Source of the DNA: an uncultured Prevotella sp.
Lineage (GTDB): Bacteria; Bacteroidota; Bacteroidia; Bacteroidales; Bacteroidaceae
Direction of reading: 5' to 3'
DNA length: 64,000 nucleotides
NCBI GenBank assembly: GCA_900768785.1
Contig: CAAGEG010000050.1
Coordinates: 16,057-80,056 of the forward strand
The notes below the pieces were generated by a model that saw nothing but the letters and a program-made list of their open reading frames with translations, was not told where the DNA came from and searched no databases. Each line of letters begins with the position of its first letter. The stretch's first letter is position 1. The position numbers and the translations under genes were made by a program. This document shows, piece after piece, positions 27,869 to 53,802 of this stretch.

Positions 27869-28136
27869 ACCATTTTCTTATCGCTTGTAATGTAAGTTTA
27901 ACCCAAATCGGTTATAAGTTTTAATCTCATTTTTCTCTTCTATGTGTTTGGTTGTGTCAAGTTTTATCTAAGACATAGTGATTTATGTCATGATAAAGCG
28001 TGGTTCAAAATGGTGCATATTGGAGCGAAAGGAGCTGAAAAGCCTATGTAATAAGAAATAAAGTTATTTGTGGTATAATGACCGATTTGGGTTTAAGGGG
28101 GCAATAAGCGTTGTGTGGTATGCAACTTGTTGATTG

Positions 28137-30119
28137 CTACTTTATTACTATGGTCTTAAACCAATCTTTCATCACTCCCGCGTATTGATTTTGTGAGTCG
28201 CTGATGATAATAATTGATTGACTTCCGTCATCTAATACAGGACCTTTACACATGCCTTCATAGTTGGCTATGGAACGGTTGAACAGAGTGAGATGTGTGG
28301 AAAACGAATGTAACAGACGTTTATCTAATGTTTTTGTCTTGTTGCAATCATACGGTGTGTCGCAAGGATACGACTTTGTCTCGTCAAGATTTATCTCGTA
28401 TATCTTGCAATTAACAAATGCGCCGATTTTTGCCTTTGGAACGAAGAACTCTCTTTCCAATACGAGCATCCTCTCTTTGCTTATTGTCGTTATTTCGCTA
28501 ACGCCTAATGCATATTGTGAGGCTTGTTTTGATGTGCTCGGCTTGTCCATTTCATAGAAATACATACAGTCTTGTTGCAGATTCATGTCAAATCCATAGA
28601 GTCTTAATATATTGTTTCGTTCATTTGAAGTGGCAGTTTGGTCTATGTCGTTTTTTAGCGGACCTTCGTTTATTGTCCATATAGTATGGCTTTCTTCATC
28701 GTATGCCAATGCCTCAAGCCCTTTGTTAGGTGTGACATTTTTCTTGAATGTCTCGGGCATGTTTATGCTTCTGCCTGTCGGAGTGCCGTCCATGTTGTAT
28801 TCAACAATGCGGTTGTCGCTCTCCCTGCTTATAAACAATGTGTTTGTTGTTGGTACATAGGCTATGCCTTCTGCGTCTGCCGATATGCCTTTGTTGGCTT
28901 TAAAACCTATGTTTTCAGCGTTTTTTATCTCCCCACTTTTGGGGTCAATGGTGATATTGAACAAGAAAAAACCGTCGCTCTCGGTCTTATCAGAGACGAC
29001 GGCATATATATTGTCGGTTATATGTGTTATTCCGCTGTAGTTGCCTGGTGGTATTGTGGCATTGAACGACCGTTGTTGACAGTCTTTTATTAGTGTTAGC
29101 GGTGGGTTGTCTGCCCATTTTGCTCCTTGTCGCAACACTATTTTTATGCGTTTGTTATTAGGTATTGTCGGACGTTGCCATGTTCCTTTGCTTACGGAGA
29201 TAATGGTTTCAACGTCTGTTGGTGCTTCGTCAACGGCTTTTTGAAGGTCTGTGTAAAGTCCTGTGCCGTCTTGGGCTACTTGAATGTCGTATTTCACAAG
29301 GTGTTTTGCCAATGCCGGTACTTCTTTTACAACTGCTTGTGCCAACAATCCTGCCACTGTCATGGCGCCTTTTATGTTATAATGGGTATTGTCTTGCCTG
29401 CCTTGTGGTAGAGAAGGTGTCTCTCCGGGTGCGAAAATCATGTGTAGCTGCTTTGATTTCTCCCTTCCAAGCCCTTGCTCAAGGTTGTGTGTTATGGCGT
29501 TTGCATCAACAAAAGGTGTGCCCGTTGCCTGTGCTACTTGTCGTGGGGATATGAGATAAGCTCCGTGAGTATCTATGAGGCTGTCGCCTTCGGCAAGGTT
29601 GCTTGACGAATTTGCTCTTAGGTCATCGTCGGTAACGGCTGTCTTGCTTTGTGCGAACGAACGTCTTACCACACTGTTAAACAATACGGGGTGTGCTCCT
29701 TTTGATTTTGTTTCTTCAACAAACTTTTTCAGGTTTGCGTCAAAGGTGGTTCCGGGTTCCGTGTGCCTTAATGTGTCGGGCTTTTCGTCGTTATGACCGA
29801 ATTGAATGAACACATAGTCGCCGGGCTTGAGCTTTTCGAGTACTTTTTGCCAACGCCCTTCGGCTATGAAACTCTTTGATGAACGCCCGTTAACGGCGTG
29901 GTTTTCAATAACTATATCATCAGAGAAGAAATTCTGCAACATCATTCCCCAGCCTCTCTCTTGCTTGTCGCCGCTGATATCTTTGTTTGCCATTGTCGAG
30001 TCGCCAATGGTAAATATCGTTATGGTGTCTTGTTTGTCGGCAGAACAAAGGGTTATGGTTAAAGCAAATGCTATAAACAGGGGTATTAGTCTGCTTGCAG
30101 CTGTTTTCTTGTTGTTCAT
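28137..30119 (-). CDS. Fusion: SGNH rhamnogalacturonan acetylesterase (CE12) + pectinesterase remnant + phytase-like esterase propeller
   Basis: GDSTM, GRSSKSF, QFGHNDEK, DNTH; VAQDGTGLYTDLQKAVD; YSGI, DAEGIA, NKGLEAL, NYEGM. Confidence 0.8.
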   Translation of the reverse strand: MNNKKTAASRLIPLFIAFALTITLCSADKQDTITIFTIGDSTMANKDISGDKQERGWGMMLQNFFSDDIVIENHAVNGRSSKSFIAEGRWQKVLEKLKPGDYVFIQFGHNDEKPDTLRHTEPGTTFDANLKKFVEETKSKGAHPVLFNSVVRRSFAQSKTAVTDDDLRANSSSNLAEGDSLIDTHGAYLISPRQVAQATGTPFVDANAITHNLEQGLGREKSKQLHMIFAPGETPSLPQGRQDNTHYNIKGAMTVAGLLAQAVVKEVPALAKHLVKYDIQVAQDGTGLYTDLQKAVDEAPTDVETIISVSKGTWQRPTIPNNKRIKIVLRQGAKWADNPPLTLIKDCQQRSFNATIPPGNYSGITHITDNIYAVVSDKTESDGFFLFNITIDPKSGEIKNAENIGFKANKGISADAEGIAYVPTTNTLFISRESDNRIVEYNMDGTPTGRSINMPETFKKNVTPNKGLEALAYDEESHTIWTINEGPLKNDIDQTATSNERNNILRLYGFDMNLQQDCMYFYEMDKPSTSKQASQYALGVSEITTISKERMLVLEREFFVPKAKIGAFVNCKIYEINLDETKSYPCDTPYDCNKTKTLDKRLLHSFSTHLTLFNRSIANYEGMCKGPVLDDGSQSIIIISDSQNQYAGVMKDWFKTIVIK

Positions 30120-30130
30120 GTTGCTGATGT

Positions 30131-31495
30131 TTATTTCACCTTTTCTATTAGTTCGTCTGTTGTAACGAGCGATTGTTCTCCCGTTGTCATGTCTTTCAAA
30201 GTGATTTTCTGCTCGTTTATCTCATTTTCTCCCGCCATTGCTACAAAGCGAACGCCATTGCTGTTGGCGTAGCTCATCTGTTTTTTCATTTTTACAGCGT
30301 CGGGATAAATCTCTGTTGCCACACCTGCTTCTCTTGCTTTTGCCGCTATGGGCATGCAGTAGGCGGTCTCTTTTTCTCCGAAATTGATGAAGAGCAGTTG
30401 TGTGTTCGACATGGCGTTTTCGGGGTATAGGTCAAGTGTGTTCAACACATCGTATATGCGGTCTGCGCCGAAAGAGATACCAACACCGCTTATTCCGGGC
30501 ATGCCGAATATTCCTGTGAGGTTGTCGTATCGTCCTCCGCCTGTTATACTTCCTATTTGTACGTCGCAGGCTTTCACTTCGAAGATTGCTCCTGTGTAGT
30601 AGTTTAGTCCGCGTGCAAGTGTTAGGTCAAACTCAACTTCGTTGTTTAAGCCGCATTGTTTCAGCATGTTGAGTATGTAGTTTAGTTCTTCCACGCCTTT
30701 CATTCCTGCTTCCGAGCCTTTTAAGATGTTGCTCATTGTGGCGAGTTTCTCTTCGTTGGTGCCGCTAAGTGTTATTATTGGCTGCAGCTTTTCTATTGCT
30801 TCGCTGCTTAGTCCGTCGGCTGCCAGTTCGGCATTTACGTTGTCAAGACCTATTTTGTCAAGTTTGTCTATTGCTACGGTTATATCTACAATTTTGTCAG
30901 CCTCGTTAATGTATTCTGCTATTCCGCTTAGTATCTTTCTATTGTTAATCTTTATCAACACTTTTATCCCGAAGCGTGTGAACACGGTGTCGATAATCTG
31001 CATGAGTTCCACCTCGTTCATTAACGAATTGCTGCCTACAATGTCGGCATCACACTGATAAAACTCTCTGTAACGCCCTTTTTGCGGTCTGTCGGCACGC
31101 CATACGGGTTGTATCTGATAGCGTTTGAAGGGCATTTGAAGTTCGTCTCTGTGCATCACGACAAAGCGTGCGAATGGTACAGTGAGGTCGTATCTCAGTC
31201 CTTTCTCGCATAGTTTTGACGATAGTTTCAGCGAGTTGCCTTCCAAGAGTGCTTCTTTGTCTATTTTATTCAGGTAGTCGCCGCTGTTGAGTATTTTGAA
31301 CAACAATTTGTCTCCCTCTTCTCCGTATTTGCCGAGCAGTGTTTGGAGGGTTTCCATTGCCGGTGTTTCAATCTGCTTGAAGCCGTAGAGTGAGTAAACG
31401 GATTTTATGGTGTTGAATATGTAGTTGCGTTTAGACATCTCTAATGGTGAGAAGTCTCTTGTGCCTTTAGGGATTGTTGGCTTTGGTGCGTTCAT
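30131..31495 (-). CDS. hisS: Histidine--tRNA ligase
   Basis: [41 protein letters not shown]. Confidence 0.97.
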
Positions 31496-31528
31496 GATTA
31501 TGTTTACTTTGTTACCTTTTTCAGCCTT

Positions 31529-32800
31529 TTATCTTATTATTGTTTGTTCACGATCCGGACCTATGGATATGATAGCTATCGGTGTTTCGAGTTGTTCTTC
31601 AAGGAATTTTATGTAGTTTTTAAATTCTTCGGGGAACTGTTCCTCGCTTGTTATTTTTGTCATATCTGTTTTCCACCCTTTCATCTCTGTGTATATGGGT
31701 GTTATTCCGTCTTCTATGTTGTATGGGAAGTCTTCCATGCGTTTGCCGTCACGTTCATAAGCCACGCAGGCTTTGATGGTGTCGAATGTGTCGAGCACAT
31801 CGCTTTTCATCATAATGAGTTTTGTCACCCCGTTAACCATTATGGAGTATCTTAGAGCGACGAGGTCTATCCATCCGCATCGGCGTTCTCTTCCTGTGAC
31901 AGCTCCATATTCGTGTCCTATGGCGCGTATCTTGTCGCCTGTTTCGTCGAAGAGTTCTGTTGGGAATGGTCCTGCACCTACGCGTGTACAATAGGCCTTC
32001 ATTATGCCGAACACGTCTCCTATTTTGTTAGGTCCTATACCGAGTCCTACACATGCTCCTGCGCATATTGTGTTTGATGAGGTTACGAACGGATAACTGC
32101 CGAAGTCGACATCGAGCATTGTGCCTTGTGCTCCTTCGCAGAGTATGCTTTTGCCTTCTTTGAGGTGTTTGTTTATTACGTGTTCTGAGTCTATGATGTT
32201 GAATTGCTTGATATATTCTATTCCTTCAAGCCATTTCTTTTCTACGTCGCTAATGTCGTAGTCGGTGTATCCCATAGATTGGAGCATCTTTTCGTGTCTT
32301 GCTTTGTGTGCGGCATATTTTTCGCTGAAGTTTTCAAATATGTCACCCACTCTTAGTCCGTTTCTTGATACTTTGTCGGTGTAGGTCGGTCCGATTCCTT
32401 TGCCTGTGGTGCCTACTTTGTTCTTGCCTTTTGCTGCTTCGTAAGCTGCATCGAGCACTCTGTGTGTGGGCATTATGAGGTGGGCTTTCTTTGATATGCA
32501 GAGTCTTTCTTTGAGGTTGTGCCCGCTTTTTTCAAGGTCTTTGGCTTCGTCCATAAAGAGGTCGGGTGCGAGAACCACGCCGTTGCCGATGATGTTTGTC
32601 TTGCCTCCTTGAAAAATGCCTGAGGGTATGCTTCTTAGTACATATTTTTCGCCTTCAAACTCAAGGGTGTGTCCTGCGTTGGGACCGCCTTGAAATCTTG
32701 CTATTACGTCGTATTGTGGTGTGAGGACATCCACTACTTTGCCTTTTCCTTCATCTCCCCATTGGAGTCCGAGCAATACGTCAACTTTGCCTTGTTTCAT
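31529..32800 (-). CDS. purA: Adenylosuccinate synthetase
   Basis: QWGDEGKGK, GTTGKGIGPTY, EGAQG, YPFVTSS. Confidence 0.98.
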   Translation of the reverse strand: MKQGKVDVLLGLQWGDEGKGKVVDVLTPQYDVIARFQGGPNAGHTLEFEGEKYVLRSIPSGIFQGGKTNIIGNGVVLAPDLFMDEAKDLEKSGHNLKERLCISKKAHLIMPTHRVLDAAYEAAKGKNKVGTTGKGIGPTYTDKVSRNGLRVGDIFENFSEKYAAHKARHEKMLQSMGYTDYDISDVEKKWLEGIEYIKQFNIIDSEHVINKHLKEGKSILCEGAQGTMLDVDFGSYPFVTSSNTICAGACVGLGIGPNKIGDVFGIMKAYCTRVGAGPFPTELFDETGDKIRAIGHEYGAVTGRERRCGWIDLVALRYSIMVNGVTKLIMMKSDVLDTFDTIKACVAYERDGKRMEDFPYNIEDGITPIYTEMKGWKTDMTKITSEEQFPEEFKNYIKFLEEQLETPIAIISIGPDREQTIIR

Positions 32801-32842
32801 AATACTTGTTGTTCTGTTATTTGTTTTTGTTATTTGCTTTGT

Positions 32843-33322
32843 TTATTCTTTGTTTTTCCTTTTGTTGTTTTTGCGTGTCAGCGCACCTTGACATTTGCTG
32901 CATATTCCGTATATGCTGAATGTGTAGTTTTCTTTGCGAAAGCGTTTTGTACGAACGTTTCTGAATATTTCGTCAACCTCAGGCGATGATATTTTTGTTA
33001 CTTGTCCGCATAGTGTACACACGCTGTAACAGCCGTCTCCTGTAAATTCCGCTTTGTATCTTATGGCTTTGTTTATTCGTATTGCGGAGACAAGTTTTAT
33101 TTCCATAAGCAGGTTCAGGGTGTTGTATATTGTTGCCAGACTTACGTGGAAATGGTCTTTTTCCAGGATTGAACTGATATCATCTGTTGTGAAGAATCCT
33201 TCAAAACTGTAAGCGGCTTTCAGTATGGCAAACCTTTCGGGGGTTTTTCTGTATTTGTTCTGTGTCAAATAGTTGAGCAGAATGTTTATTGCCTTTTCTG
33301 TTATGTCGCTTGATGTGTCCAT
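32843..33322 (-). CDS. Fur-family transcriptional regulator
   Basis: RKTPERFAIL, VSLATIYNTL, CxxC and GICSKC. Confidence 0.88.
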   Translation of the reverse strand: MDTSSDITEKAINILLNYLTQNKYRKTPERFAILKAAYSFEGFFTTDDISSILEKDHFHVSLATIYNTLNLLMEIKLVSAIRINKAIRYKAEFTGDGCYSVCTLCGQVTKISSPEVDEIFRNVRTKRFRKENYTFSIYGICSKCQGALTRKNNKRKNKE

Positions 33323-33559
33323 GTGTGTTCGCTATTCCTTGACAAAATTACACAAAATGTATGTAATAAACGAATAAATCGTCAAGAAATGGTGTTGTTT
33401 CTTTATAATCGGCAAGTTGAGGGTTTGTTGTGTGGCTTGGTGGTTGTTTTTGTCTGTTGTCGGTCGTTGGGTTGGCGGTTTGGTGTGTCAAGGTTTTGTT
33501 GTGGTTGTGTTGTTTTCGGCGTGCCGTTTTTGTCGGTTGTTGGATCGGAGGTTCGGGGT

Positions 33560-34129
33560 TTATTGTCGTGTGTTGTTTTCGGTAAGTCGGTTTATGGCGT
33601 TTCCTGCTGCGTGTCTTACGGCTAAATTGTTGTGGTTCAAGGCTTTCTGTGCTAATGTTTTGAATGTTTCAAATTCGTTGTTTTCAAGCGTGATGCCTTT
33701 CATAAACAGTCGTGAAAGTGTCTGATAGCCGCAAATGGTTATAATGTCGCTCTTGTCTGTTATCCATTCAAGGGCGTGCTCTTTGGCGTTTTCTATGTGT
33801 TGAAACAGCTTCATGGCGGCAATTTCGGCTATCTCTTGGTTGGGTATCTCGTGTGCCCATGTTTTTGTTTTTTCGTGTGTCATTGTTTCGGGTGGCATCA
33901 TCATGAGTGCCAGTATCTTAGACTCGCGAATATCTTCTACCCATAACAGTTGTGCGAGTTCGTGGTCTTTGCCGTGTTGTTGTGCGTAGGCGGTGAGTTC
34001 GGGCAGACTGATGCCCCAAATTATTTTGTATGCGAGTCCTTTGTTTCTCATCGATTGTGAAACAACGCCGTTCATGTGCAGTCTGTACCATGTTTTCAGC
34101 TCTTTCAGTCTGTCGGTTGCCGTTGTCAT
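33560..34129 (-). CDS. DNA alkylation repair protein (AlkD-like HEAT repeat)
   Basis: MNGVVSQSM, WGISLPEL, LWVEDIRESKILA. Confidence 0.75.
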   Translation of the reverse strand: MTTATDRLKELKTWYRLHMNGVVSQSMRNKGLAYKIIWGISLPELTAYAQQHGKDHELAQLLWVEDIRESKILALMMMPPETMTHEKTKTWAHEIPNQEIAEIAAMKLFQHIENAKEHALEWITDKSDIITICGYQTLSRLFMKGITLENNEFETFKTLAQKALNHNNLAVRHAAGNAINRLTENNTRQ

Positions 34130-34160
34130 CTGTGTGGGTGTTTATATATTATAATATGTG

Positions 34161-36110
34161 TCAATATTCTCTGCTGTATCGCAACATCTGTTCGGTGTAG
34201 CTTTCGGTGTAGTCGGGCACAATGTCTGTTATCTTGCCTTTGTCGTCTCTGACGGCTTTAAGTCGGGGATTTACAAATCCTTTGTATGGCGGGATGTTCA
34301 GTTTGTCGTATCTTTCTTTTATTTCTTTGTGTAGTTCGGGGTCTGTTTTCACGGCGTATCTCTCTACGATATCTTTTGCTGCCTGATAGTCGCCTTCGCT
34401 CTTAATGCGCTGTATTTCAGCCAATAGCTGTGCAAACAGGTCTCTTAGTTTTTCATAGTCGTTGATTTTTACAAAGGTTTTGCCGTTTTTGCGAACAAGT
34501 TCTACTATGTTGTTTTTCTTGCCTTGTTCGTAACACCGGTGGGCTATGAGTGCTCTGTTTCTCATGTGGGCTTCTTCTATGTCTTGTCCTATGTTAATGC
34601 GAGCCATTTGTGTGAGCAGTCCGTTCATCATATAGGTATAATATGTTGCCTTGTATGCTTCTTTGTCGGGCAAGAGTCCCAAGTCGGTGAGTTTTTTGTC
34701 GGCGCAGTAGTATAGTCCGAATAGGTCGGCGCGAGCTTCTTCTATGGTACTTCCATATGCTTTCAGCGCGTCTTGACTTACGCCTTCAAGCAGTTGTCCG
34801 CTACCGTGTCCGAGACATTCGTGCAGGTCGGTGTGGATAATGTCACAGAGGTTGCCGTATTTATCTATGAGACAGCGTGTTTCGTTGTCTATGACAAATT
34901 CTTCAAGAAAGCCGTTGCCACGTGCAGCTTCGTTATATGCGTTGATGATATTGCTTATAGTAACGCTTTTCGAACCGTGTTGTGCTCTTATCCATTCGGC
35001 GTTTGGGAGGTTAATGCCAATGGCGGTAGCGGGATATTCGCCGCCACCGAGCATGGCGGCACATATAACGTTGGCTGTCACACCTTTAACTTGTTTTTTC
35101 TTAAATCTCGGGTCAACGGGTGAGTGGTCTTCAAACCATTGTGCGTTGTCGCTTATGAGGCGTGTGCGCATGGTGCCTTCTTTGTCTCTGTATTCCACGA
35201 GTCCTTCCCATGTGCCTTTAAGTCCTAAGGGGTCGTCGTAGGTTTCAATAAATCCGTTGATAAAGTCAATGTCGGCTTCGGTTTCTTTTACCCATTCTAT
35301 GCAGTAGGTGTTGAATGTTCTAAGGTCGCCTGTTGTGTAGTAGTCTATAAGGTGCTGTATTATAGAGCGTTGGTTGTTGTTTTCGGCTGTTTCTTTTGCT
35401 TTTTCAAGCCAATAGATAATGTGTGTTATCTGTTTGCTGTATTTGCCACCCACTCGCCATGTTTCTTCTTTTATTGTTCCGTTTTCTTTGACAACGGTTG
35501 TGTTAAGACCGAGTGAGAGGGGCTCTTTGTCGTTATTGTCTTTCAGTTGTGCATAGTAGGCTTCTACTTCTGCTTGTGTTACATCCACGAAGAAGTTGCA
35601 TGCCGAATTTTTAACTATATCTTCGTGGGCTTTTTTTGATACTTTTACGGGTGCTATGTTTGGGTCGTAAATTATTGGTATTAGCTCTTTTACGAGTTCT
35701 TCGTGTGTTTGTTTCTCGCTTAGTGGCAGCTGTTCTTTTTTTAGTGTGTTTACTGCGTCTGCGAAGAATTGTTTTGTGAAGTTTGGTATAAACTTTTCGC
35801 AACCGTAATGATGATATATACCGTTTGAGAACCACACTCTTTTGAGATAAGTTTCCAGTTGTCGGAAGTTGTCGGTGTTTCTGTCGCCTTCGTAGTGCAG
35901 ATAGATAGCTTCGAGGGTTTTGCGTATAAGTATGTTCCATTTGCCGAATTGGTCAAATGTGATGTCTCGTCCTGCGAGTGCAGCTTTGGCGAGATAGTAG
36001 GCGAGGGCCTTTTGCTTGAGGGTGAGTTGTTCGAAGTTCTCAAGTCTATATCTTAGTATTCTTATATCGGCGAAGTCTTCTACGATATATTGAAACTTAT
36101 CTTCTGTCAT
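34161..36110 (-). CDS. Dipeptidyl-peptidase III (M49)
   Basis: HECLGH zinc motif, EEARAD, GINLPN. Confidence 0.93.
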   Translation of the reverse strand: MTEDKFQYIVEDFADIRILRYRLENFEQLTLKQKALAYYLAKAALAGRDITFDQFGKWNILIRKTLEAIYLHYEGDRNTDNFRQLETYLKRVWFSNGIYHHYGCEKFIPNFTKQFFADAVNTLKKEQLPLSEKQTHEELVKELIPIIYDPNIAPVKVSKKAHEDIVKNSACNFFVDVTQAEVEAYYAQLKDNNDKEPLSLGLNTTVVKENGTIKEETWRVGGKYSKQITHIIYWLEKAKETAENNNQRSIIQHLIDYYTTGDLRTFNTYCIEWVKETEADIDFINGFIETYDDPLGLKGTWEGLVEYRDKEGTMRTRLISDNAQWFEDHSPVDPRFKKKQVKGVTANVICAAMLGGGEYPATAIGINLPNAEWIRAQHGSKSVTISNIINAYNEAARGNGFLEEFVIDNETRCLIDKYGNLCDIIHTDLHECLGHGSGQLLEGVSQDALKAYGSTIEEARADLFGLYYCADKKLTDLGLLPDKEAYKATYYTYMMNGLLTQMARINIGQDIEEAHMRNRALIAHRCYEQGKKNNIVELVRKNGKTFVKINDYEKLRDLFAQLLAEIQRIKSEGDYQAAKDIVERYAVKTDPELHKEIKERYDKLNIPPYKGFVNPRLKAVRDDKGKITDIVPDYTESYTEQMLRYSREY

Positions 36111-36123
36111 TTATTTGTGGTTT

Positions 36124-36573
36124 TTATTGTTCTGTTTCTTTTGCTTTTTTCTCTTTTGTCATACGAAGATAAAGCTGAAGATATTGGCGCGGTGTGATTT
36201 GAAAGTTTTTATAAAAGGCGGCATAAAAAGGTTGTCGGTGCTTAAACCCCACAAGTCCGGCTATGTCTTGAACGTTAAGGTTTAATTCTTTAAGTTTCTG
36301 TATATATTTGAGTGAAGCTTCAACTCGGCATTTATTGACAAAAGACGGAAAGTTCATGCCGTAGCCGAGTTTAATTGCCGCTGCCACATATCGTGTGTTG
36401 GTGTTGAGCTCTTTTGCGAGCTGTTCGATTCTATAATTCTCAACAAGATATCTTTTTTTCTTGACTATTGTTTCTTTTATTTTTGGTTTTAGTTCCTGAA
36501 TTCTCTTTTTCGGGATAGTGTTTGTGTACGCTGCCGGTTCTTTTTCGTTTGGGTGAATTTGATATTTTGCCAT
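36124..36573 (-). CDS. AraC-family HTH protein
   Basis: LAKELNTNTRYV..GMNF..IAGLVGF..FYAAF..TPRQY. Confidence 0.85.
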   Translation of the reverse strand: MAKYQIHPNEKEPAAYTNTIPKKRIQELKPKIKETIVKKKRYLVENYRIEQLAKELNTNTRYVAAAIKLGYGMNFPSFVNKCRVEASLKYIQKLKELNLNVQDIAGLVGFKHRQPFYAAFYKNFQITPRQYLQLYLRMTKEKKAKETEQ

Positions 36574-36812
36574 AATCCTGATTGTTTTATTAATGTATCG
36601 ATTTGCAAATTTACGAAAAACAAAGGAAACGCGAGTTGTTTAATAGCTATTTTTGATTTCTGTGGTTTTATTTTTCTTATATATAAATATGTACGAGTAC
36701 CTTATAATAAATACGATAGTGATATCGTTTGCCAAATGTTTACAAAACAGCGCTGTTTTTAACGTCTCGTGGAGTGGAAAATCTACATAAATATTACTCA
36801 TGTGTGAAAATA

Positions 36813-36895
36813 AGACAAAATGTCATACTGACTGACAAAAAGTCACTATAGTTTAATGTGTTGGTGCTTTTTAAAATTCAGGCATGGTGTTTGTT
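36813..36895 (+). promoter_or_regulatory. Two TGACA/TGTCA-type dyads plus sigma54-like -24/-12 element upstream of the 404-aa ORF
   Basis: AGACAaaaTGTCA 36813-25, TGACAaaaAGTCA 36833-45, AGGCATGGTGTTTGT 36880-94 (GG-N10-GT). Confidence 0.5.
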
Positions 36896-36925
36896 ATATT
36901 TTATGTATAATCAATTTTTTTTAAT

Positions 36926-38140
36926 ATGATCATTACCACTATAGTAGAAAAGAATGAGGAAGGCCTAAAAACAATATTACAGGCCGCAAGTATGTTCTGT
37001 GAAGAACGTTATTTATATGCAATTTTTCAAAATAATATGACGAAAGACGAAGTGGTTCGTCTTACAAGTTTTGTGCGTTCTAAAGAGTCTCAATTCAATT
37101 CAGAGATTCTTTCGCTTGCTAAATTCGCCCATAAGTGGCTTGATAGCTATGCAACAGATAATAACAGCTGTTTTGATGCTGCTGCAAATATGTTAAATAA
37201 AATCAGAGGTGCGATTAGTGGGGCTAAAAAAATTTATAAAAAGTTTTGCAAAAGAACAAGACGACAGCTTCCAAATGTAAACAACTGTTCTGTGCTTGCG
37301 CCATCTGAAAATGTAAACACACGTTCTGTGTTTAAGGCATCTGAATTAGCTAACCCTAATTATATTGATGATTTTTTCGGGATCGGCTCGTATGACGCTT
37401 GTGTTGCTGATTTATATAAAATACTTGAAATATTTTATCGAGAATTTTATTTTAGTTTAACGTTGTGCCGCATGATGTTAAGGTTAGAGGCACAGAAGAG
37501 AAATTCGCCTGAAATTATGGATATTTACAATAAAGCCATATGCGAAATGACTAAAGAGGCGAAAGAATTAATAGAGATTTATAAGGGGGCAGGTATCGAA
37601 GTCCCGCTTGATGACTTGAGTAAGGCAATTAGGGATAGTGATGACCGACTAATGGTTATTGCAGGCAATTATCATGCGTTGGATAAAACAACAATGAAAA
37701 TGCATGTTGCTCGGCAGCTTCAGGAGAAAAGTAAATCTACCGGACTTACCGTTGATGAACATATTCTGTGGCCCAACCAAACTGACAATGTGATTATTTA
37801 TCGGAATATGGCTCAACATTACGACGAAATAAGTCCTAAAAACAAAGATGGGAAACTTAATAGTTACGAAGTGGCTGCTTTCATGAGTTGGACAGGAATT
37901 AAAGAGAATGAAAATAAAACTACAACATTTGCGAAATGGCTTAGAGAAAATTATAGGGGGCAATATGCTCTGCCTGCTGCTAATACATTGAACAAAGCTA
38001 AAAACAAAGTAAATTTAAACAATGCAGACAATCATTTTTTGGATAAGGGTAGTTTTGATGTAAGATTGGATGAGCTTGCCACTAAGTATAATCACAGCCC
38101 AAAAAATATTCTTGACGACGCTTCAATTACTTTTAATTGA
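36926..38140 (+). CDS. Hypothetical protein (404 aa), no recognised domain
   Basis: Long open frame, ATG, followed by a strong terminator. Confidence 0.8.
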   Translation: MIITTIVEKNEEGLKTILQAASMFCEERYLYAIFQNNMTKDEVVRLTSFVRSKESQFNSEILSLAKFAHKWLDSYATDNNSCFDAAANMLNKIRGAISGAKKIYKKFCKRTRRQLPNVNNCSVLAPSENVNTRSVFKASELANPNYIDDFFGIGSYDACVADLYKILEIFYREFYFSLTLCRMMLRLEAQKRNSPEIMDIYNKAICEMTKEAKELIEIYKGAGIEVPLDDLSKAIRDSDDRLMVIAGNYHALDKTTMKMHVARQLQEKSKSTGLTVDEHILWPNQTDNVIIYRNMAQHYDEISPKNKDGKLNSYEVAAFMSWTGIKENENKTTTFAKWLRENYRGQYALPAANTLNKAKNKVNLNNADNHFLDKGSFDVRLDELATKYNHSPKNILDDASITFN

Positions 38141-38165
38141 TAATTTGTTTTTTTATTATAGCTAT

Positions 38166-39039: not shown

Positions 39040-39051
39040 AACAAAAACAAC

Positions 39052-44421: not shown

Positions 44422-44439
44422 GAGAAAAAGAAAAGCAAA

Positions 44440-45621
44440 TCATTCAACGTAGAGCACAAGACCCTTAAGATATTCACCCTCAGGATGATAGATGTTTATA
44501 GGGTGGTCGGCAGGTTGATGCAGCTGATGAAGAATTCTCACGTTACGTCCCGCCTGAGCCGCCGCCGTAAACACCGCATTTCTGAAGTTATCTTTCGTCA
44601 CCACCTGCGAGCAGGAGAATGTAAAGAGGATACCACCCTTACGAATACGCTGGAAAGCCTTCACGTTAAGTCGTGTATAACCTTTCAAAGCATTATGTAA
44701 CGCCGCCCGATGTTTGGCAAACGCCGGTGGGTCAAGTATTATAAGGTCGTATTTGTTGTCAGCGGCATCAAGAAATTTGAAAGCATCCTCGCAGAACGCC
44801 TCATGTCGGTTGTCGTCAGGGAAATTAAGTTCCACGTTAGCGTTGGTCAGTTCGATAGCCTTAGCGCTACTGTCAACCGAGTGTACCGTTTTAGCACCCC
44901 CTCGCATAGCATAAAACGAGAAGCCCCCCGTGTAGCAAAACATGTTTAGTACCGTTTTGTCTTTGGCGTAACTCTCTAACAGACAGCGGTTTTCACGTTG
45001 GTCAACAAAGAAACCCGTTTTCTGTCCGCGCAGCCAATCCACATGGAATTTCAGTCCGTTTTCCACAGCGATGTTATCGTTGCATCCCCCGACAATGAAA
45101 CCGTTTTCTTGACCCAACCCCGCCTTGTATGGAAGCGTGGTTTCAGATTTGTAGAACACATGTTCTATTCTGTCGCCCATCACCCTTACCAGTTGTTGAG
45201 CAATAACATTGCGATGTCTGTGCATGCCCACGCTATGTGCCTGCATCACAGCCGTTTTGCCGTAGCAGTCGATTACGAGTCCCGGCAGGTTGTCGCCCTC
45301 GCCGTGAACAAGACGGTAAGTGTTGTTAGTAGGGTTGTCGGCAATGCCCGTCAGTCTTCTCATTTCAAGCGCAGACGTAAGACGTTCGCACCAAAACCCC
45401 TCGTCAATGTCAATATCTTCAAACGTCAGCACCCTGACAGCGATGCTCCCAACCTGGAAATGCCCTATGGCGATGAACTCATTATCGGCATTAAGCACCC
45501 TCACCGTTTCGCCCTCTTCGATATTGTTATCGGCAAAAGCTATGGCACCCGAGAATATCCAGGGATGGAAGCGTTTGAGGCTTTCCTCTTTGCCCCGTTT
45601 AAGTACGATTGTTTTATACAT
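44440..45621 (-). CDS. rlmI: RlmI-like 23S rRNA m5C methyltransferase
   Basis: HPWIFSG, RLVHGEGDNLPG, GQKTGFFVDQRENR, ILDPPAF, EGEYLKG. Confidence 0.88.
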   Translation of the reverse strand: MYKTIVLKRGKEESLKRFHPWIFSGAIAFADNNIEEGETVRVLNADNEFIAIGHFQVGSIAVRVLTFEDIDIDEGFWCERLTSALEMRRLTGIADNPTNNTYRLVHGEGDNLPGLVIDCYGKTAVMQAHSVGMHRHRNVIAQQLVRVMGDRIEHVFYKSETTLPYKAGLGQENGFIVGGCNDNIAVENGLKFHVDWLRGQKTGFFVDQRENRCLLESYAKDKTVLNMFCYTGGFSFYAMRGGAKTVHSVDSSAKAIELTNANVELNFPDDNRHEAFCEDAFKFLDAADNKYDLIILDPPAFAKHRAALHNALKGYTRLNVKAFQRIRKGGILFTFSCSQVVTKDNFRNAVFTAAAQAGRNVRILHQLHQPADHPINIYHPEGEYLKGLVLYVE

Positions 45622-46282
45622 TTTGCTCCTTTGTTTCTAATTGTTCGTCAGTTGTCTGCTCGTTGTCAGGCACTTCAACAAGTTTGTAACATCTCTCACG
45701 CATCAGTCTTTCCAGCTCGTTATAAATCATTACACACGCCCACGCATCAGTGGCGGCATAAAGCTTTTGGCTGTCAGTAAGGATGTCAGCCTCCCAGTTG
45801 CTCAGTTGCGCCGTTTTGCTTATCTTTTCATTAAAAATATTCGCATAAATCTTCTGTAAGCTGAGGTCTTTGATACCCACTTCGCCCACAATGTTTTGAA
45901 GGTCAATCATGTTTTCAGGTTTGAACTCGCCCCGCTTGTGTAAAGACAAGATGTCGTCGTGAAGCGACAAACCAATCTTCATTACCGACTTGTCTTCCAG
46001 AAACTTAACTATAGCAGGAGTAAACCCCGTAAGATTTAGCCGGAAAAGAAAACAAATGTCAAGCGTAGCCACCTGCAACAACGCCACCAAGCGGCTCTGT
46101 CCCTTCTTGAACGAGGGTCGCGTCTCGGTGTCTATGCCGACAATCTTTTGAGAAAGCAAGAAATTGATAGCCTTGTCAGCCTCTTTTGCCGTTGTGATGA
46201 CAACAATTCTCCCGCCAAACACCGCTCTCGGCAGTCGGGCAATGCAGCTTTTATCAAACTTGTTATATATCAGTCGTTCCAT
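45614..46282 (-). CDS. 3'-5' exonuclease (DEDDy, RNase D/WRN-like); start placed at MERLIY
   Basis: GIDTETRPSF, SNWE, YAATDAW. Confidence 0.88.
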   Translation of the reverse strand: MERLIYNKFDKSCIARLPRAVFGGRIVVITTAKEADKAINFLLSQKIVGIDTETRPSFKKGQSRLVALLQVATLDICFLFRLNLTGFTPAIVKFLEDKSVMKIGLSLHDDILSLHKRGEFKPENMIDLQNIVGEVGIKDLSLQKIYANIFNEKISKTAQLSNWEADILTDSQKLYAATDAWACVMIYNELERLMRERCYKLVEVPDNEQTTDEQLETKEQNV

Positions 46283-46455
46283 TATTATAAATAAAAATGG
46301 TTTGCAAAAATATAAAAAAAAGGCGACTTTTATGGTCTGTTCTAACATTTTTCAATTACTTTTGCAAATAAAAGGAGTTTGGCAACTACAAATTCCCGCT
46401 ATTTTAGTGCAACACTTAAAGCAAAGACAACAAAAACAAAACAGCTCAAATAACC

Positions 46456-48936
46456 ATGCCAAAGAAAAAGACCAAGCCCGCAAGCAAGACATTCAGTGAA
46501 GCTTTAGGGCTGAACAACATATTGCAGAACGACATCATCAACTTTGTAGCAGGCATCATCCTGTTATTGCTGTCGGTATATTTCATCATCGCATTCATCT
46601 CCTTCCTCTCAACAGCCGGCGACGACCAAAGTTTGGTTCTTGACCTGCGTCCCGGAGAGATACTCAATTCAGACAAGACATTCAAAAACAGCTGCGGCTC
46701 ATTTGGCGCATTCCTTTCTTACTTCTTCATATCAAGATGTTTCGGCTATGCCGCATTCATCATACCCGTATTTATGGGCATGGTAGGACTGAAAATGGTA
46801 AAAGCCTACAATTTCAGACTTCTCAAAATGTTTGTTTGCCTCACGGTGGTAATGATTTGGCTGTCGGTAACATCAGCCAAGCTGCTCACACCCATTATGG
46901 GAAGCATGGTCTATAATCCCGGTGGCGATCACGGACTATACTGTTGTCAGTGGATAGAAAACATTGTAGGCACACCCGGACTATCGGTAATACTTATACT
47001 CACCGCTTTGCTCTTCCTTACATACCTCAGCAGAGAAACTATAAACATAGTAAGAAAAATACTCAATCCCGTTAGCGCAATAACAAGCAAAGTGCCATTC
47101 TCGGTAACAGTAGGAAAAACCAACGACGACGGTAACACAAGCCACAAAGCAGAAGAAGACCCCACAACCTTTGACGACCCGGAGACACAAACCGTCGATT
47201 TCGGCAACGGTAAAGACACACCCGTTGTTGCCGGAGCAGGGGCAGTGAATGTTAACGATAACGATAACGAAAACGAAAACTCTTCAACCCAGACAAAGCA
47301 AAACAGCGGCAATGCCGAAAATACAGACGCAAACCAAACCGAACTTACAATAATAGAAAACGCAGAAGAAGAGACCGCCGGCTCACGTGTAGTATCAGGC
47401 GAGAAAGACCTCTCCGCACCAATAAACCCACTTGAACCATGGGTGAAATACCATTATCCCACACTCAGTCTGCTGAAAAAATACGACAACGACGGCAAGC
47501 CATATATCGACATGAAAGAGCAGACCCTAAACAAAAACCGCATCGTTGAAGTATTAAACAGCTTCGGTGTACAAATACGCACCATAACAGCAACAGTAGG
47601 ACCAACCATAACACTATATGAAATAACACCCGCCGAAGGTGTGAAAATATCAAGAATAAGAAACCTTGAAGACGACATAGCACTCAGCCTTGCCGCTTTG
47701 GGAATACGTATCATAGCACCCATACCCGGCAAAGGAACAATAGGTATAGAAGTGCCCAACGCCAAACCAAACATCGTCTCTATGGAAAGCATTCTCAACT
47801 CACGCAAGTTCCAAGAGACAACAATGGACCTGCCCATAGCAATAGGAAAGACTATTACTAATGAAGTCTTTATGGCAGACCTCACAAAAATACCACACCT
47901 CTTGGTGGCAGGCGCTACGGGACAAGGAAAATCAGTAGGACTAAACACTATTATAACATCGCTACTCTACAAAAAACATCCCAACGAACTCAAATTCGTC
48001 CTCATTGACCCCAAGAAAGTAGAGTTCAGCATGTACAACCCCATTGCCAACCACTTCATGGCAAAAGTCCCTGACGACAACGAAGAACCTATCATCACAG
48101 ACGTAAAGAAAGTCATACGCACCCTCAACGGACTTTGCAAACTCATGGACATGAGATACGACCTGTTAAAACTTGCCGGAGCAAAGAACATCAAGGAATA
48201 CAATAATAAATATGTAAACCATAAACTAAGGCTAACCGATGGACACGAATACATGCCCTACATCGTCGTAATCATAGACGAGTTCGGAGACCTTATCATG
48301 ACAGCAGGCAAAGAAATAGAAATGCCTATCGCACGTATAGCCCAACTCGCACGAGCAGTAGGAATACACATGGTTATTGCAACACAAAGACCAACAACAA
48401 CAATTATTACAGGTAACATAAAAGCCAACTTCCCGGGACGTATGGCGTTCAGAGTAAGTTCTATGATTGACTCAAGAACAATTCTCGACCGCCCCGGCGC
48501 AAACCAACTAATCGGACGAGGAGACATGCTCTTCCTCAATGGCAACGAACCCGTACGTGTTCAATGCGCATTTGTCGATACACCCGAGATTGAAGACATA
48601 AACAAATATGTCTCATCACAGCCCGGACCGACAGAACCAATGGAACTGCCCGAACCCGTATCAGAAGAAGACACAGATGTGGCACATGGAGGCATTGACA
48701 TGCACTCTATAGACCCACTCTTTGAAGATGCAGCACGCACAATAGTGTCCACACAACAAGGCTCCACAAGCATGATACAAAGACGATTCTCAATAGGATA
48801 CAACAGAGCCGGACGCATAATGGAACAAATGGAGAAAGTGGGAATAGTAGGCGGAGCACAAGGAGCAAAGCCACGAGAAGTGTTGATACAAGACGAAACA
48901 TCGCTTGAAAACATTATTGCACAACTGAGAAAATAA
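46456..48936 (+). CDS. ftsK: DNA translocase FtsK
   Basis: N-terminal TM, PHLLVAGATGQGKS, IIDEF, ATQRP, gamma domain IQRRFSIGYNRAGR. Confidence 0.96.
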   Translation: MPKKKTKPASKTFSEALGLNNILQNDIINFVAGIILLLLSVYFIIAFISFLSTAGDDQSLVLDLRPGEILNSDKTFKNSCGSFGAFLSYFFISRCFGYAAFIIPVFMGMVGLKMVKAYNFRLLKMFVCLTVVMIWLSVTSAKLLTPIMGSMVYNPGGDHGLYCCQWIENIVGTPGLSVILILTALLFLTYLSRETINIVRKILNPVSAITSKVPFSVTVGKTNDDGNTSHKAEEDPTTFDDPETQTVDFGNGKDTPVVAGAGAVNVNDNDNENENSSTQTKQNSGNAENTDANQTELTIIENAEEETAGSRVVSGEKDLSAPINPLEPWVKYHYPTLSLLKKYDNDGKPYIDMKEQTLNKNRIVEVLNSFGVQIRTITATVGPTITLYEITPAEGVKISRIRNLEDDIALSLAALGIRIIAPIPGKGTIGIEVPNAKPNIVSMESILNSRKFQETTMDLPIAIGKTITNEVFMADLTKIPHLLVAGATGQGKSVGLNTIITSLLYKKHPNELKFVLIDPKKVEFSMYNPIANHFMAKVPDDNEEPIITDVKKVIRTLNGLCKLMDMRYDLLKLAGAKNIKEYNNKYVNHKLRLTDGHEYMPYIVVIIDEFGDLIMTAGKEIEMPIARIAQLARAVGIHMVIATQRPTTTIITGNIKANFPGRMAFRVSSMIDSRTILDRPGANQLIGRGDMLFLNGNEPVRVQCAFVDTPEIEDINKYVSSQPGPTEPMELPEPVSEEDTDVAHGGIDMHSIDPLFEDAARTIVSTQQGSTSMIQRRFSIGYNRAGRIMEQMEKVGIVGGAQGAKPREVLIQDETSLENIIAQLRK

Positions 48937-48987
48937 ATCAACACAAACCAAAACACGAAGACACTAACGTCAAAACACAATATTATT

Positions 48988-49587
48988 ATGAAAAAACTGA
49001 TAATTGTCTTTTGTCTGTTACTTTCACTATCTGTCAGTGCACAGAACGCAGCACAGGCACGCAAGATCTTAGACAAGACAGCTGCACTCATAGCAAACAA
49101 AAAAGGGGCAACCGCCAACTTCAATATAGTGGGAAAAAACCTCAATACATCAGGAACAATAGCCATAAAAGGCAACAAATTCCAAGCCACAACACCACAA
49201 GCCATTGTCTGGTATGATGGAAAAACACAATGGACATACATGAAGGCGAGCCAAGAAGTAAACGTTAGCAACCCGACAGAAGCCCAACAACAAACCATGA
49301 ACCCCTACAAGTTCATAAACCTCTACAAAAACGGCTTCAACCTAAGCATGAAAACCATAAGCACAGGCTGGCAAATACATCTCACGGCTACCAATCAGAA
49401 ACGCTCCATAAAAGAGATGTATGTCACCATAAACAAAAACTATCAGCCACAGACCATAAAAATGCGACAATCAAACGGCTGGGTGACAATAAACGTAAGC
49501 CGTTTCAAGGCAAAGACTCTTGGCGATGCAACGTTCCGTTTCAACGCAAAAGACTATCCCAAAGCAGAAATTATTGACCTAAGATGA
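48988..49587 (+). CDS. lolA: LolA-like outer-membrane lipoprotein carrier
   Basis: Signal peptide; WYDGKTQWTY; EIIDLR end; ftsK-lolA synteny. Confidence 0.8.
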   Translation: MKKLIIVFCLLLSLSVSAQNAAQARKILDKTAALIANKKGATANFNIVGKNLNTSGTIAIKGNKFQATTPQAIVWYDGKTQWTYMKASQEVNVSNPTEAQQQTMNPYKFINLYKNGFNLSMKTISTGWQIHLTATNQKRSIKEMYVTINKNYQPQTIKMRQSNGWVTINVSRFKAKTLGDATFRFNAKDYPKAEIIDLR

Positions 49588-49606
49588 AAAATAAGACCCA
49601 TAGTTT

Positions 49607-51115
49607 ATGGCAAAGATAAACAAATTCAAACTCTTCCTAATGCTGCGCAAAAACATTAAACTGTCAGAAAAGCGTAGCGTGGCTTACCAACAAAACAAAA
49701 CAGCAAAAATAATCATTTACTTAATGAGTGGCTTCGCCATTTGTTATATGCTCTTTCTTTCGATTATGCTTGCGTTAATAGCCAACGAAACCGACACCTA
49801 CACCGCAAGCGAGTTCTTCTTCGGACTCTTGCCTTTCTTCCTCGTTGCTGATTTCTTCTTCAGATTTATAGGACAACAGACACCCGCACAGCTGATTAAA
49901 CCCTACAGCCTCATGCCTATACCACGCTACACATGCGTCGAACTGTTCCTAATATCAAGCGTCTTATCGTCAAACAACCTGCTCTGGCTCGCAATAACCG
50001 TGCCCTATGTCATTATGACAATGATTTTCAGCGACGGAATATTGCCCTCGATAGCACTTGTTTTTGCATTTCAAATAGTCGTTTCCATCAACAGCCAATG
50101 GTATCTGCTCGTTAGAACATTGATAAACAAAAGCATGATATGGTGGGCACTGCCGCTTCTTGTTTATGCAGCAGCATTTTCGCCCATTTATCTCGACAAC
50201 TTTGACACGCTGTTTGACACATGCGCACTCTTAGGCACAGGACTCGCATTCGGAAACATCATCTGTTACGCCGCAATAATACTCATACTATTGGCTTTTG
50301 TCCAACTAAACAAGCGTGTTCAATACCATTTCACCTACATGGAAACAGCCAATGTAGAGAATGTAAAGATGAAACATGTGGCAGATTTTGCCGTGCTCAA
50401 CAGATACGGCGAAATAGGCGAGTATCTCAAACTTGAAGTCAAAAGTCTGATACGCAACAAAAACATGCGCAAATCATTCATCTTTGCCACCGCCTTTGTT
50501 ATGATTCTAAGCCTCGTAATATCGTTCACCGATATATATCAAGACAATTTCTCACGCAACTTCTGGGTGGTTTACAACTTCGTTCTCTACGGAGCAATGA
50601 TGCTCATCAAGATAATGAGCTCGGAAGGAAACTATATCGACGGACTGATGATACATAAAGAGAACATCCTTCAACTCATAACCGCAAAGTATTATTTCTA
50701 TAGTACACTCCTCATAATGCCGTTTATTCTGATGCTGCCAACGGTATTTACAGGCAAATATTCATTGCTCATGTTGCTCTCAATGATTGCTTTCACCATC
50801 GGACCTGTCTATTGTCTGCTCATGCAAATGGCTGTTTACAACCGACAAACAACCCCGCTTAATTCAAAGTTTATAAGCAAAGGCAATGTGGAAAACAACT
50901 ATTTTCAGATAGTGGCAGAGCTCATCGCAATGTTTTGTCCCGTGATTTTTATTTCAATATTAAAAGCTTTCTTCAGCGAAAATGTCACATTTGTCATATT
51001 GCTCCTTATAGGACTGATATTCATTTCGCTGCACAAATTGTGGCTGCGCAACATCTATCAACGCTTTATGTCAAGACGTTACAAAAACATGGAAAGCTTC
51101 AGGGCAACACGATAA
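49607..51115 (+). CDS. DUF5687-like polytopic membrane protein
   Basis: Many TM helices; GEYLKLEVKSLIRNK. Confidence 0.65.
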   Translation: MAKINKFKLFLMLRKNIKLSEKRSVAYQQNKTAKIIIYLMSGFAICYMLFLSIMLALIANETDTYTASEFFFGLLPFFLVADFFFRFIGQQTPAQLIKPYSLMPIPRYTCVELFLISSVLSSNNLLWLAITVPYVIMTMIFSDGILPSIALVFAFQIVVSINSQWYLLVRTLINKSMIWWALPLLVYAAAFSPIYLDNFDTLFDTCALLGTGLAFGNIICYAAIILILLAFVQLNKRVQYHFTYMETANVENVKMKHVADFAVLNRYGEIGEYLKLEVKSLIRNKNMRKSFIFATAFVMILSLVISFTDIYQDNFSRNFWVVYNFVLYGAMMLIKIMSSEGNYIDGLMIHKENILQLITAKYYFYSTLLIMPFILMLPTVFTGKYSLLMLLSMIAFTIGPVYCLLMQMAVYNRQTTPLNSKFISKGNVENNYFQIVAELIAMFCPVIFISILKAFFSENVTFVILLLIGLIFISLHKLWLRNIYQRFMSRRYKNMESFRATR

Positions 51116-51137
51116 ACATGTTAAAACAAGTGAAAAT

Positions 51138-51203
51138 ACTGACAAAAGTGTCAGTCTTGTCGTGTCAAAAATGTCACAAGATGTTTTTGGCACGATTTTC
51201 GCA
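51138..51203 (+). promoter_or_regulatory. groES promoter: TGACA/TGTCA dyads plus sigma54 -24/-12
   Basis: ACTGACAAAAGTGTCAGT 51138-55; TGTCAAAAATGTCA 51163-76; TGGCACGATTTTCGCA 51188-203 (GG-N10-GC). Confidence 0.75.
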
Positions 51204-51290
51204 TGTAATATAAGTGAAAACAAAACAAAAGAAATACATACAGACACATAAATATAAAATTATATATAAACAATTTAAAACATAAATATT

Positions 51291-51560
51291 ATGAACATTA
51301 AACCATTAGCAGACAGAGTTTTGGTGCTCCCCGCACCCGCAGAAGAAAAAATCGGTGGAATTATCATTCCTGATACAGCAAAAGAAAAGCCGCTACATGG
51401 CAGAATTGTTGCCACCGGCAACGGCACTAAGGACGAGGAAATGATACTCAAAGAAGGCGATGAAGTGCTCTATGGCAAATATTCAGGCACCGAATTGGAG
51501 TATGAAGGCGTGAAATATCTCATGATGCGCCAAAGCGATGTACTCGCTATAGTAAAATAA
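51291..51560 (+). CDS. groES: Co-chaperonin GroES
   Basis: [29 protein letters not shown]. Confidence 0.98.
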
Positions 51561-51642
51561 TTCTAACAACAAACAACAGACAAAACAATTTTGCAACTAT
51601 ATCTTTTAAACCTTAAAACGAGAAAGTTGCATGTCAAAATAA

Positions 51643-53286
<1,644 letters not shown>

Positions 53287-53318
53287 TTTAATACTCAAAT
53301 TTGCAAACTTTAGATATC

Positions 53319-53365
53319 AAAATGAGGGACAACAACTTCGTTTGTTCCTCATTTTCAGTTTTTTT
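53319..53365 (+). terminator. groEL terminator
   Basis: AAAATGAGGGACAA / TTGTTCCTCATTTT then T-run. Confidence 0.8.
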
Positions 53366-53431
53366 AATACAATAGATGAATTTTTTTTGTATAAAATATT
53401 GCGATGAAAAAATCTTTTTTCTACTTTTGCA

Positions 53432-53559
53432 TCATCAATAGTATGTACCGTATGGATTTTTATCCACAAGTAGATATTTTTTGATTTGTTTTAGTAGATT
53501 AGTTTTTAAGTAGTTTGTTTTTTGAAAATCGTTTGTCGTGATGACATGCGATTTTTTTT
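53432..53559 (+). ncRNA. Candidate ~125-nt sRNA
   Basis: Promoter TACTTTTG 53422-29; TGGAT..ATCCA hairpin; terminator AATCG-TTGTC-gtgat-GACA-GCGATT+T-run; no ORF. Confidence 0.55.
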
Positions 53560-53649
53560 GTTCCTTAAACTCACAATTACCAAATTCCATATTCCAAAAC
53601 GAACAATAGCATACCCCAAATTCTCAACCCTGTGTTTCTAATCTCCAAT

Positions 53650-53802
53650 CTCAAAACTTTAAACTTTCCACCCCGAAACTTTTAATTTCCCATCCCTGAA
53701 CTTTCAATCACCATTCCTGAACTTTCAATCACCAACCTTGACACTTTCAACCACCAACCTTGACACTTTCAACCACCATCCCTGAACTTTCAATCACCAA
53801 CC
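53650..53802. repeat. 21/22-bp tandem repeat (CCATCCCTGAACTTTCAATCA / CCAACCTTGACACTTTCAACCA)
   Basis: ACTTTCAA at 53700, 53721, 53743, 53765, 53786. Confidence 0.9.

Follow-up and report, generated by a model that had tools for sequence, protein, structure and literature searches.

What places the strongest reversal of strand composition in a bacterial genome on a small replication module amid core genes? The window analysed here, a stretch of 64,000 nucleotides (C50:16057-80056) from an uncultured Prevotella sp. (genome G000; assembly of 2.72 Mb in 171 contigs, 84% complete), carries such a module between araC and tilS; all coordinates below are window positions unless a contig is named. 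The module encodes a BT4734-like primase-polymerase and a PriCT_2-DUF3987 helicase, and the helicase gene itself holds an origin-like element of inverted iterons. Here, we show that the strand skew flips at this element, that the flip is real and the strongest in the genome, and that it is centred no more than about 0.6 kb from the element, which very probably causes the footprint on the neighbouring genes.

Skew was followed as the G+T content at four-fold degenerate sites of 1,917 heuristically called open reading frames (ORFs; genome mean 0.499), which removes effects of gene direction. This ORF calling is noisy where genomes are GC-rich, and the screens of 55 and 88 outside loci described below used a stricter caller. 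Over all sites, GC skew was above zero left of ~40 kb and below zero from 40 to ~52 kb, and the cumulative curves had their maxima at 39,562 (G+T) and 40,415 (G-C), with the element at the centre of the flip, as the original prediction of a switch near 39.8 kb had it; at four-fold sites the cumulative curve was level across 39-42 kb. Coding-strand four-fold G+T was 0.20-0.29 in the - strand genes hisS, purA, and dpp3 on the left, 0.67-0.70 in the - strand genes tilS, rlmI, and exonuclease on the right, and 0.22-0.23 in the + strand genes ftsK and lolA, also on the right. The + strand thus showed a G+T excess of up to 0.30 left of the element and a deficit of up to 0.28 right of it in genes of either strand. 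Since the left/right bias holds for genes on both strands, it is independent of gene direction, as had been read by eye from a G/T-rich + strand on the left and a C/A-rich one on the right. Two tracts singled out in that reading behaved as described, with 84% G+T in 33,400-33,560 (mostly G/T) and 5% G in 53,600-53,800 (few G). The nine most biased of 863 8-kb segments ranked genome-wide all lay on these two flanks, and the amplitude was 0.25 compared with a median of 0.03 for 20-kb chunks of the genome.

We call the strand running toward the iteron element the inward strand, and count convergence as positive where the polarity is terminus-like. The fitted convergence coefficient at the window site was +0.19 +/- 0.012. 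Along the distance from the element, the bias was +0.06 (0-3.3 kb), then +0.20, +0.25, and +0.23 (3.3-10.5 kb), +0.14 (10.5-13.5 kb), +0.02 (13.5-18 kb), and +0.07 (18-26 kb). The profile is hump-shaped, peaking 4-10 kb out and faded by 13-16 kb, so the predicted fading with distance holds for the outer part only and, the bias being low near the element, is not a simple decay. Similarly, the switch was correctly located within the primase-helicase operon, and the C-rich 3' part of DUF3987 turned out to be an all-site effect, the helicase gene being close to neutral at four-fold sites. Neutrality had also been expected at ~22-27 kb; the left side stays positive beyond 22 kb, where the + strand carries a positive background common to the closest genome found.

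The same genome contains further copies of the element. Searches by nhmmer gave 17 further sites, each flanked left and right by decayed remnants of the helicase gene, and two partial copies at contig ends, taken from a motif list, bring the stand-alone copies to as many as 19; many lie at contig ends, and some may be halves of one copy. Among their 23 measurable arms, 17 were positive, with a pooled bias of +0.049 toward the element that had faded by 6 kb (random-arm null with a standard deviation of 0.011 in 20,000 draws, p < 0.0001, the arms not being fully independent). The 309 other contig ends averaged 0.000. In a blind scan of the genome for convergent peaks, the top three of 172 were C69:42 kb, the window site, and C21:43.5 kb, all on inverted-iteron elements, which occupy 33 of the 2,709 scanned points. 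The C69 element, first noticed through its peak and later recovered by a detector blind to skew, has a different iteron word and adjoins, on the 5' side, a truncated copy of a helicase-like gene with a longer copy on C78. Three other interior copies were at the 95th, 83rd, and 28th percentiles of convergence.

A comparison with an empty site was possible in G659, the closest of 400 genomes searched with TilS (60%), here called the sister. It has the same gene order, with both flanks adjacent and in the same orientation and 421 bp without a module between araC and tilS, and the collinearity continues on C123 and C57 through the whole window. These two contigs were used, and the part of G659:C210 past about ftsK codon 500, which is chimeric, was dropped. 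On that contig (L291), the public bin turns chimeric inside ftsK at ~24 kb, the C-terminal part of ftsK, lolA, and the following genes coming from a distant organism. Across the empty site, the + bias was uniform at 0.06-0.07 and convergence was +0.006 to +0.031, as against +0.19 in the window; over the first 500 codons of ftsK, G+T was 0.58 in the sister and 0.26 here. More widely, the ftsK-minus-rlmI contrast was -0.47 here and -0.19 to +0.20 in the orthologous loci with both genes (64 of 80), and the helicase gene was present at none of the 80. Four-fold divergence from the sister reached 0.53-0.78 in the zone (background median 0.48, 95th percentile 0.59, 158 pairs), and GC at four-fold sites was 0.38-0.61 compared with 0.30 in the background. 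Protein identity to the sister was 45-72% for fur, the alkD-like gene, dpp3, araC, tilS, and exonuclease, with a background median of 91%; the rlmI protein was not accelerated. At its orthologues of the C69 and C21 sites, the sister has helicase relics at contig ends, and the flanks that could be seen showed a bias of the same polarity (+0.14 to +0.23 on C59, weaker at C45/C108). Another relic element of the sister, at G659:C56:8221-8439 (L308), has both arms in the same direction, not inverted, and is surrounded by no flip.

The mutational spectrum was distinct as well. Relative to expectation, the inward strand contained A 0.41, C 0.95, G 1.88, and T 1.19 at the window site and 0.54/0.97/1.52/1.23 (A/C/G/T) at C69, and the ordinary keto-rich strand of the genome 0.96/0.92/1.01/1.07, values attenuated by its estimated orientation. 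Differences from the sister numbered 142 A>G and 35 G>A, and 128 A>T and 51 T>A; these counts are unpolarised and near saturation, which made a polarised substitution spectrum unobtainable at four-fold sites. At two-fold sites of outward-coded genes, both transitions were visible. The G/A gain was alike across neighbour contexts (log2 1.7-2.3, and 3.1 in one small class), with no NAC preference, the context favoured by unrepaired E. coli replication errors (10.1101/346874; here and below, papers are cited for the accessible parts of their text). On the exposed strand of mitochondria, A>G is accompanied by C>T (PMC9949150). The absence of the flip at the sister's empty site, the flips at other iteron elements, and this spectrum sustain the idea that the module has, over a long time, left a mutational footprint on the core genes beside it.

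How the element would act is less certain. Outward 5'-to-3' synthesis displaces the outward-running strand and leads to ordinary polarity; the observed polarity means that the inward-running strand must be exposed or miscopied. We favour uncoupled local unwinding driven by the helicase at its own origin-like element, with the inward strand left single-stranded longest, a reading that seems to us evenly balanced between right and wrong. For a homologous PriCT-DUF3987 protein, 5'-to-3' helicase activity and binding to the BT4734-like primase-polymerase encoded with it are documented (PMC11724360). The C-terminal domain of the helicase here would recognise the iterons, and the enzyme would load at the element and unwind ~10-13 kb outward on both sides, moving along the outward-running strand, which would be copied promptly. 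The inward-running strand would be filled late, from the centre outward; its exposure would increase away from the element up to the point where the helicase falls off, which would account for the hump. Adenine deamination and, to a lesser degree, cytosine deamination would become fixed when the products are inherited, and stand-alone copies would be fired in trans, more weakly.

The same strand could also be exposed by a recurrent two-ended break at the element, caused by a protein roadblock or a hairpin, after which 5' resection would leave the inward strands as 3' overhangs to be deaminated and then used as repair templates. This geometry yields exactly the observed polarity and two-sided symmetry, the 49-nt arms of the element are 92% complementary, and assemblies and synteny often break at element copies; moreover, the primase has lost one family-conserved Arg and the iterons run opposite to those of the family, so firing at the origin may be abortive. 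We nevertheless hold breakage to be unlikely, as the DNA nearest to it should be exposed longest, yet the bias is weakest beside the element and peaks 4-10 kb out (module genes may confound this), and near-identical stand-alone copies are far weaker than the gene-internal copy, which is unexpected for a pure hairpin. Quite unlikely is an error spectrum of a proofreading-less primase-polymerase whose lagging-type copying of the helicase-bound strand would place dG opposite T, with the errors escaping mismatch repair. On the inward strand, the change is almost exclusively A-to-G, and the primase-polymerase AgaPP misinserts dGTP and dATP in Mn2+ (PMC11724360), but such errors would leave the hump unexplained, the inward strand has no dA excess, and an NAC preference of the E. 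coli type (10.1101/346874) is missing, a weak test given the different polymerase. Among the mechanisms originally suggested, fork trapping is disfavoured by spectrum and range, leaving local synthesis and resection as candidates.

The foremost alternative of the original prediction was that the flip is the chromosomal terminus itself; this, like an element trapping forks from both sides, is very unlikely. The polarity is indeed terminus-like, and dif was not located and hence could not be placed elsewhere: a dif-type motif gave no good intergenic match in the zone, this motif being unsuitable (matches in 3 of 61 genomes of the genus) and the genome only 84% complete, and the accessible main text of PMC3025954 and PMC3091885 yielded no Prevotella dif sequence. 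The best-looking match, on C110, was rejected: it falls within an ORF, and across the genus the motif is not conserved. The sister, however, is collinear through the whole window and has no flip, at least three such flips occur on three contigs, the bias decays and has an amplitude of 0.25 where 20-kb chunks have a median of 0.03, and the spectrum is unlike replichore bias. An artefact, whether from misassembly at the repeat, from an inversion, or from codon usage peculiar to single genes, has next to no probability. Many contigs do end at this repeat, but the helicase reading frame runs uninterrupted through the element, the sister has the two flanks side by side in the same orientation, the amplitude is above any replichore bias in the genome, orthologues lack the bias, and genes on the two strands respond oppositely. 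The sister comparison speaks against both the terminus and an artefact.

Several observations weigh against helicase-driven exposure at the element. The spectrum of the C21 flip is C-to-T-like; two-fold pyrimidine sites in the inward-coded tilS, rlmI, and exonuclease run the opposite way with no C-to-T part, and the loss of cytosine is small for a deamination model. Several intact copies are without effect (C125 at the 28th percentile, C99 weak), effect size does not track identity to the master copy, the hump intervals overlap for the stand-alone copies, and four other copies of the C69 type were null or weak. The homologous helicase aids its polymerase in leading-type strand displacement in vitro, which predicts ordinary polarity (PMC11724360). 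An origin-centred convergent flip was found at none of 143 loci (55 + 88) in other genomes and viral contigs, about two thirds of which could be fitted, so the expected recurrence at BT4734/DUF3987 loci in general was not supported. Among the 55 DUF3987, DUF4248, and subfamily loci, the 46 and 51 fitted at two ranges gave -0.156 to +0.048 and -0.062 to +0.072, and an error filter removed one fit (+0.072 +/- 0.032); among the 88 further loci (37 and 40 fitted), two values near +0.15 were element-boundary effects. Two species that share an island of the same module type (G226 and G739) have a flip whose centre is the module and whose polarity is that of an ordinary origin (-0.10 and -0.16).

General DUF3987 and DUF4248 loci showed no convergent flip, and pattern scans and single-protein scans found no close relatives. 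A metagenome iteron scan (114 loci) recovered unrelated repeats, none matching this genome. Loci L429 and L437, convergent at first look, turned out to be the borders of elements with a uniform skew. Several related elements have an extremely one-sided composition, four-fold G+T of one strand being 0.12-0.26 or 0.76-0.79, which suggests that the family replicates with strong asymmetry. Together with the flips of ordinary polarity, they indicate that the machinery leaves strong strand footprints of either sign. In L421, L429, L437, L382, L387, and L372, integrase-like genes were noted by eye, and the one-sided composition extends along the full element. At G226:C16 (L300-L301) and G739:C22 (L343), short ATGCC/GGCAT-type repeats stand in opposite orientation on either side of the origin.

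The element lies in frame within the linker that joins the PriCT_2 domain to DUF3987, its 4 + 4 inverted iterons having a 9-bp period around the AT-rich core. Linkers from other genomes (n=21, by eye, several being close kin) have the C-rich iteron copy in front in 18 cases and are ambiguous in three, with no case of the reverse order; here the G-rich copy comes first, that is, the element is reversed relative to the family. The iterons of the two loci of opposite polarity also point the other way than here. Reversed iterons coincide with reversed polarity; the independent lineages behind this are very few, and the arms could also have been shaped by mutation. Tentatively, and with more doubt than confidence, we propose that this lineage hosts an integrase-less primase-helicase driving as many as ~20 chromosomal mini-origins that stem from its own gene and work without DnaA; their reversed iterons would lead to uncoupled local replication and to standing hypermutable zones that reverse strand bias and speed the evolution of core genes (tilS, dpp3, fur). 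The DnaA gene of this genome is on contig C8.

Table 1. Features of the module and its flanks (window positions)
Feature	Position	Strand	Remarks
Left footprint: GDSL/phytase, hisS, purA, fur, alkD-like, dpp3, araC	27000..36573	+ strand G/T-rich	Four-fold residual +0.08 to +0.30; sister orthologues +0.03 to +0.12
Inserted module without integrase	36574..43074	+	Sister: just 421 bp from araC to tilS
404-aa protein, no assigned function	36926..38140	+	Weak homologue (20% identity) at same position in G221 module
Four GTGACCAAC repeats	38230..38282	+	5' of primase gene; 1 base off iteron word; single copy in genome
BT4734-like archaeo-eukaryotic primase (AEP) primase-polymerase, 190 aa	38467..39039	+	PF08800, E 3e-21
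PriCT_2-DUF3987 helicase, 752 aa	39052..41310	+	PF08707, PF13148; Walker A GxxGGGKG; variable C-terminal helical domain
Origin-like element inside helicase gene	39745..39894	none	Four GTTGGCAC iterons, AT-rich core with central palindrome, four GTGCCAAC iterons
DUF4248 small protein, 77 aa	41331..41564	+	PF14053 match at C50:57414-57617
HU-HIG family DNA-binding protein	41892..42323	+	PF18291
Right footprint: tilS, rlmI, exonuclease, ftsK, lolA, DUF5687, groEL	43075..53800	- strand G/T-rich	+ strand residual -0.07 to -0.28; sister -0.06 to +0.11

The genes of the module are listed in Table 1. In the primase alignment, motif I (DFD), the Lys of motif II (GVK), and the Asp of motif III (EAD) are all kept, and the Arg of the SRACFL motif, conserved in the family, is substituted. 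The helicase has FDSEG in the Walker B region, where homologues have FETE. Its closest homologue, P0001, is 87% identical with an almost unchanged ATPase domain, and the alignment concentrates the differences in the iteron-encoded peptide and the C-terminal domain. Because these two parts differ together, we infer that the C-terminal domain may read the iteron. This helical domain is a putative winged helix-turn-helix, its matches to helix-turn-helix domains being non-significant only (E 0.18-0.39), and a PDB sequence search with the helicase returned nothing significant. The N-terminus of the helicase carries a low-complexity Ala/Asn/Ser/Gly repeat expansion (39093-39342), shorter in P0001. 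The GTGACCAAC repeats are likely autoregulatory binding sites. The 404-aa protein matched no Pfam family, its Atlas clusters being Bacteroidota hypotheticals. DUF4248 is present in 125 of 200 genomes of the family. No tyrosine recombinase (PF00589) was found on contig C50, all 10 matches in the genome being on other contigs. An inverted repeat resembling repetitive extragenic palindromes (41641-41729) has ~30 nhmmer matches in the genome, 25 of them listed without clear skew effect. At the right end of the module are degenerate tandem repeats (42370-42530 and 42818-42975, with units of ~9 bp and 64 bp), and the 177-aa - strand ORF that spans them is probably no real gene.

Neither the proteins nor the origin design are new in kind. 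AgaPP/AgaPH of Seonamhaeicola sp. S2-3 likewise has a BT4734-like AEP gene followed by a PriCT-DUF3987 gene, with Lys in AEP motif II and Walker motifs; by analogy, the module proteins would have primase-polymerase and helicase activity. Only AgaPP has an integrase-bearing element, an extra N-terminal domain, and a link to long-B pAgo, and the accessible text describes no origin, stand-alone copies, or effect on flanking DNA (PMC11724360). The module here, in contrast, has no integrase, DUF4248 and HU-HIG downstream, and origin-like DNA inside the helicase gene. The pri-rep-ori region of staphylococcal pathogenicity islands (SaPIs) similarly combines a primase with a self-loading helicase and opposed iterons flanking an AT-rich core, and its Rep has a C-terminal domain varying with the iteron; Rep is 3'-to-5' with ori downstream of rep (PMC9371898), whereas the helicase family here is 5'-to-3' and the element lies in frame inside the gene. 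Unlike in SaPIs, the element has spread as stand-alone copies. SaPIs carry an integrase and excise.

With the chromosomal terminus (dif/XerCD and a GC-skew shift; PMC3025954, PMC3091885), the flip shares its polarity; it differs in being local, at several sites, absent from the sister, and of A-to-G spectrum, with no dif-like site found nearby by the unsuitable motif. The mitochondrial heavy strand resembles it in a one-stranded enrichment of A>G and C>T that changes gradually away from an origin, a gradient attributed partly to time spent single-stranded (PMC9949150). That gradient is one-directional over a whole replicon, whereas the one here is two-sided, spans ~13 kb in a DnaA-bearing bacterial chromosome, and has a smaller cytosine loss. 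The literature searched, in which subscription papers were thinly covered, contained no account of a resident module that has scattered stand-alone origins and leaves a reversed mutational footprint on core genes, nor is the footprint described in the accessible parts of PMC5862659, PMC7111523, PMC10434189, PMC3091885, and PMC3025954.

Strand skew is a tool for locating origins and termini and for checking assemblies. In this genome, a small resident replication module is very probably the source of the strongest terminus-like signal. The footprint can be regarded as fossil evidence that common, unstudied Bacteroidales islands of primase-helicase, DUF4248, and HU act on the chromosome in place, and such islands may raise mutation in essential genes 10 kb off. 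It would also define the origin-like sequence of the PriCT-DUF3987 family and offers a testable link between the direction of the iterons and the strand exposed.

Other inverted-iteron elements were seen in this genome. A second family, with TGTCACA/TGTACAA words, occurs at C69:42158-42317, the start of C75, the start of C21, the end of C147, and C10:26.5 kb, tied to a module of a helicase-like gene, CHC2/toprim, and DUF4248 (longer gene copy at C78:35-2207, L325); it is also found in G659 (C118, C42, C186), where the iteron word varies between copies and the core is kept. Iterons of a third family, AAGATGGC, lie beside a VirE-like gene at C46:204-369 and C157:100-420, and on C157 two such elements with different iteron words stand side by side. 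Finally, C35:4199-7886 (L326) holds an apparently integrase-less module with a Lin1244_N initiator-like gene, a toprim and DnaB-like primase-helicase, DUF4248, and HU, on the right side of which the - strand is A-poor and G-rich.

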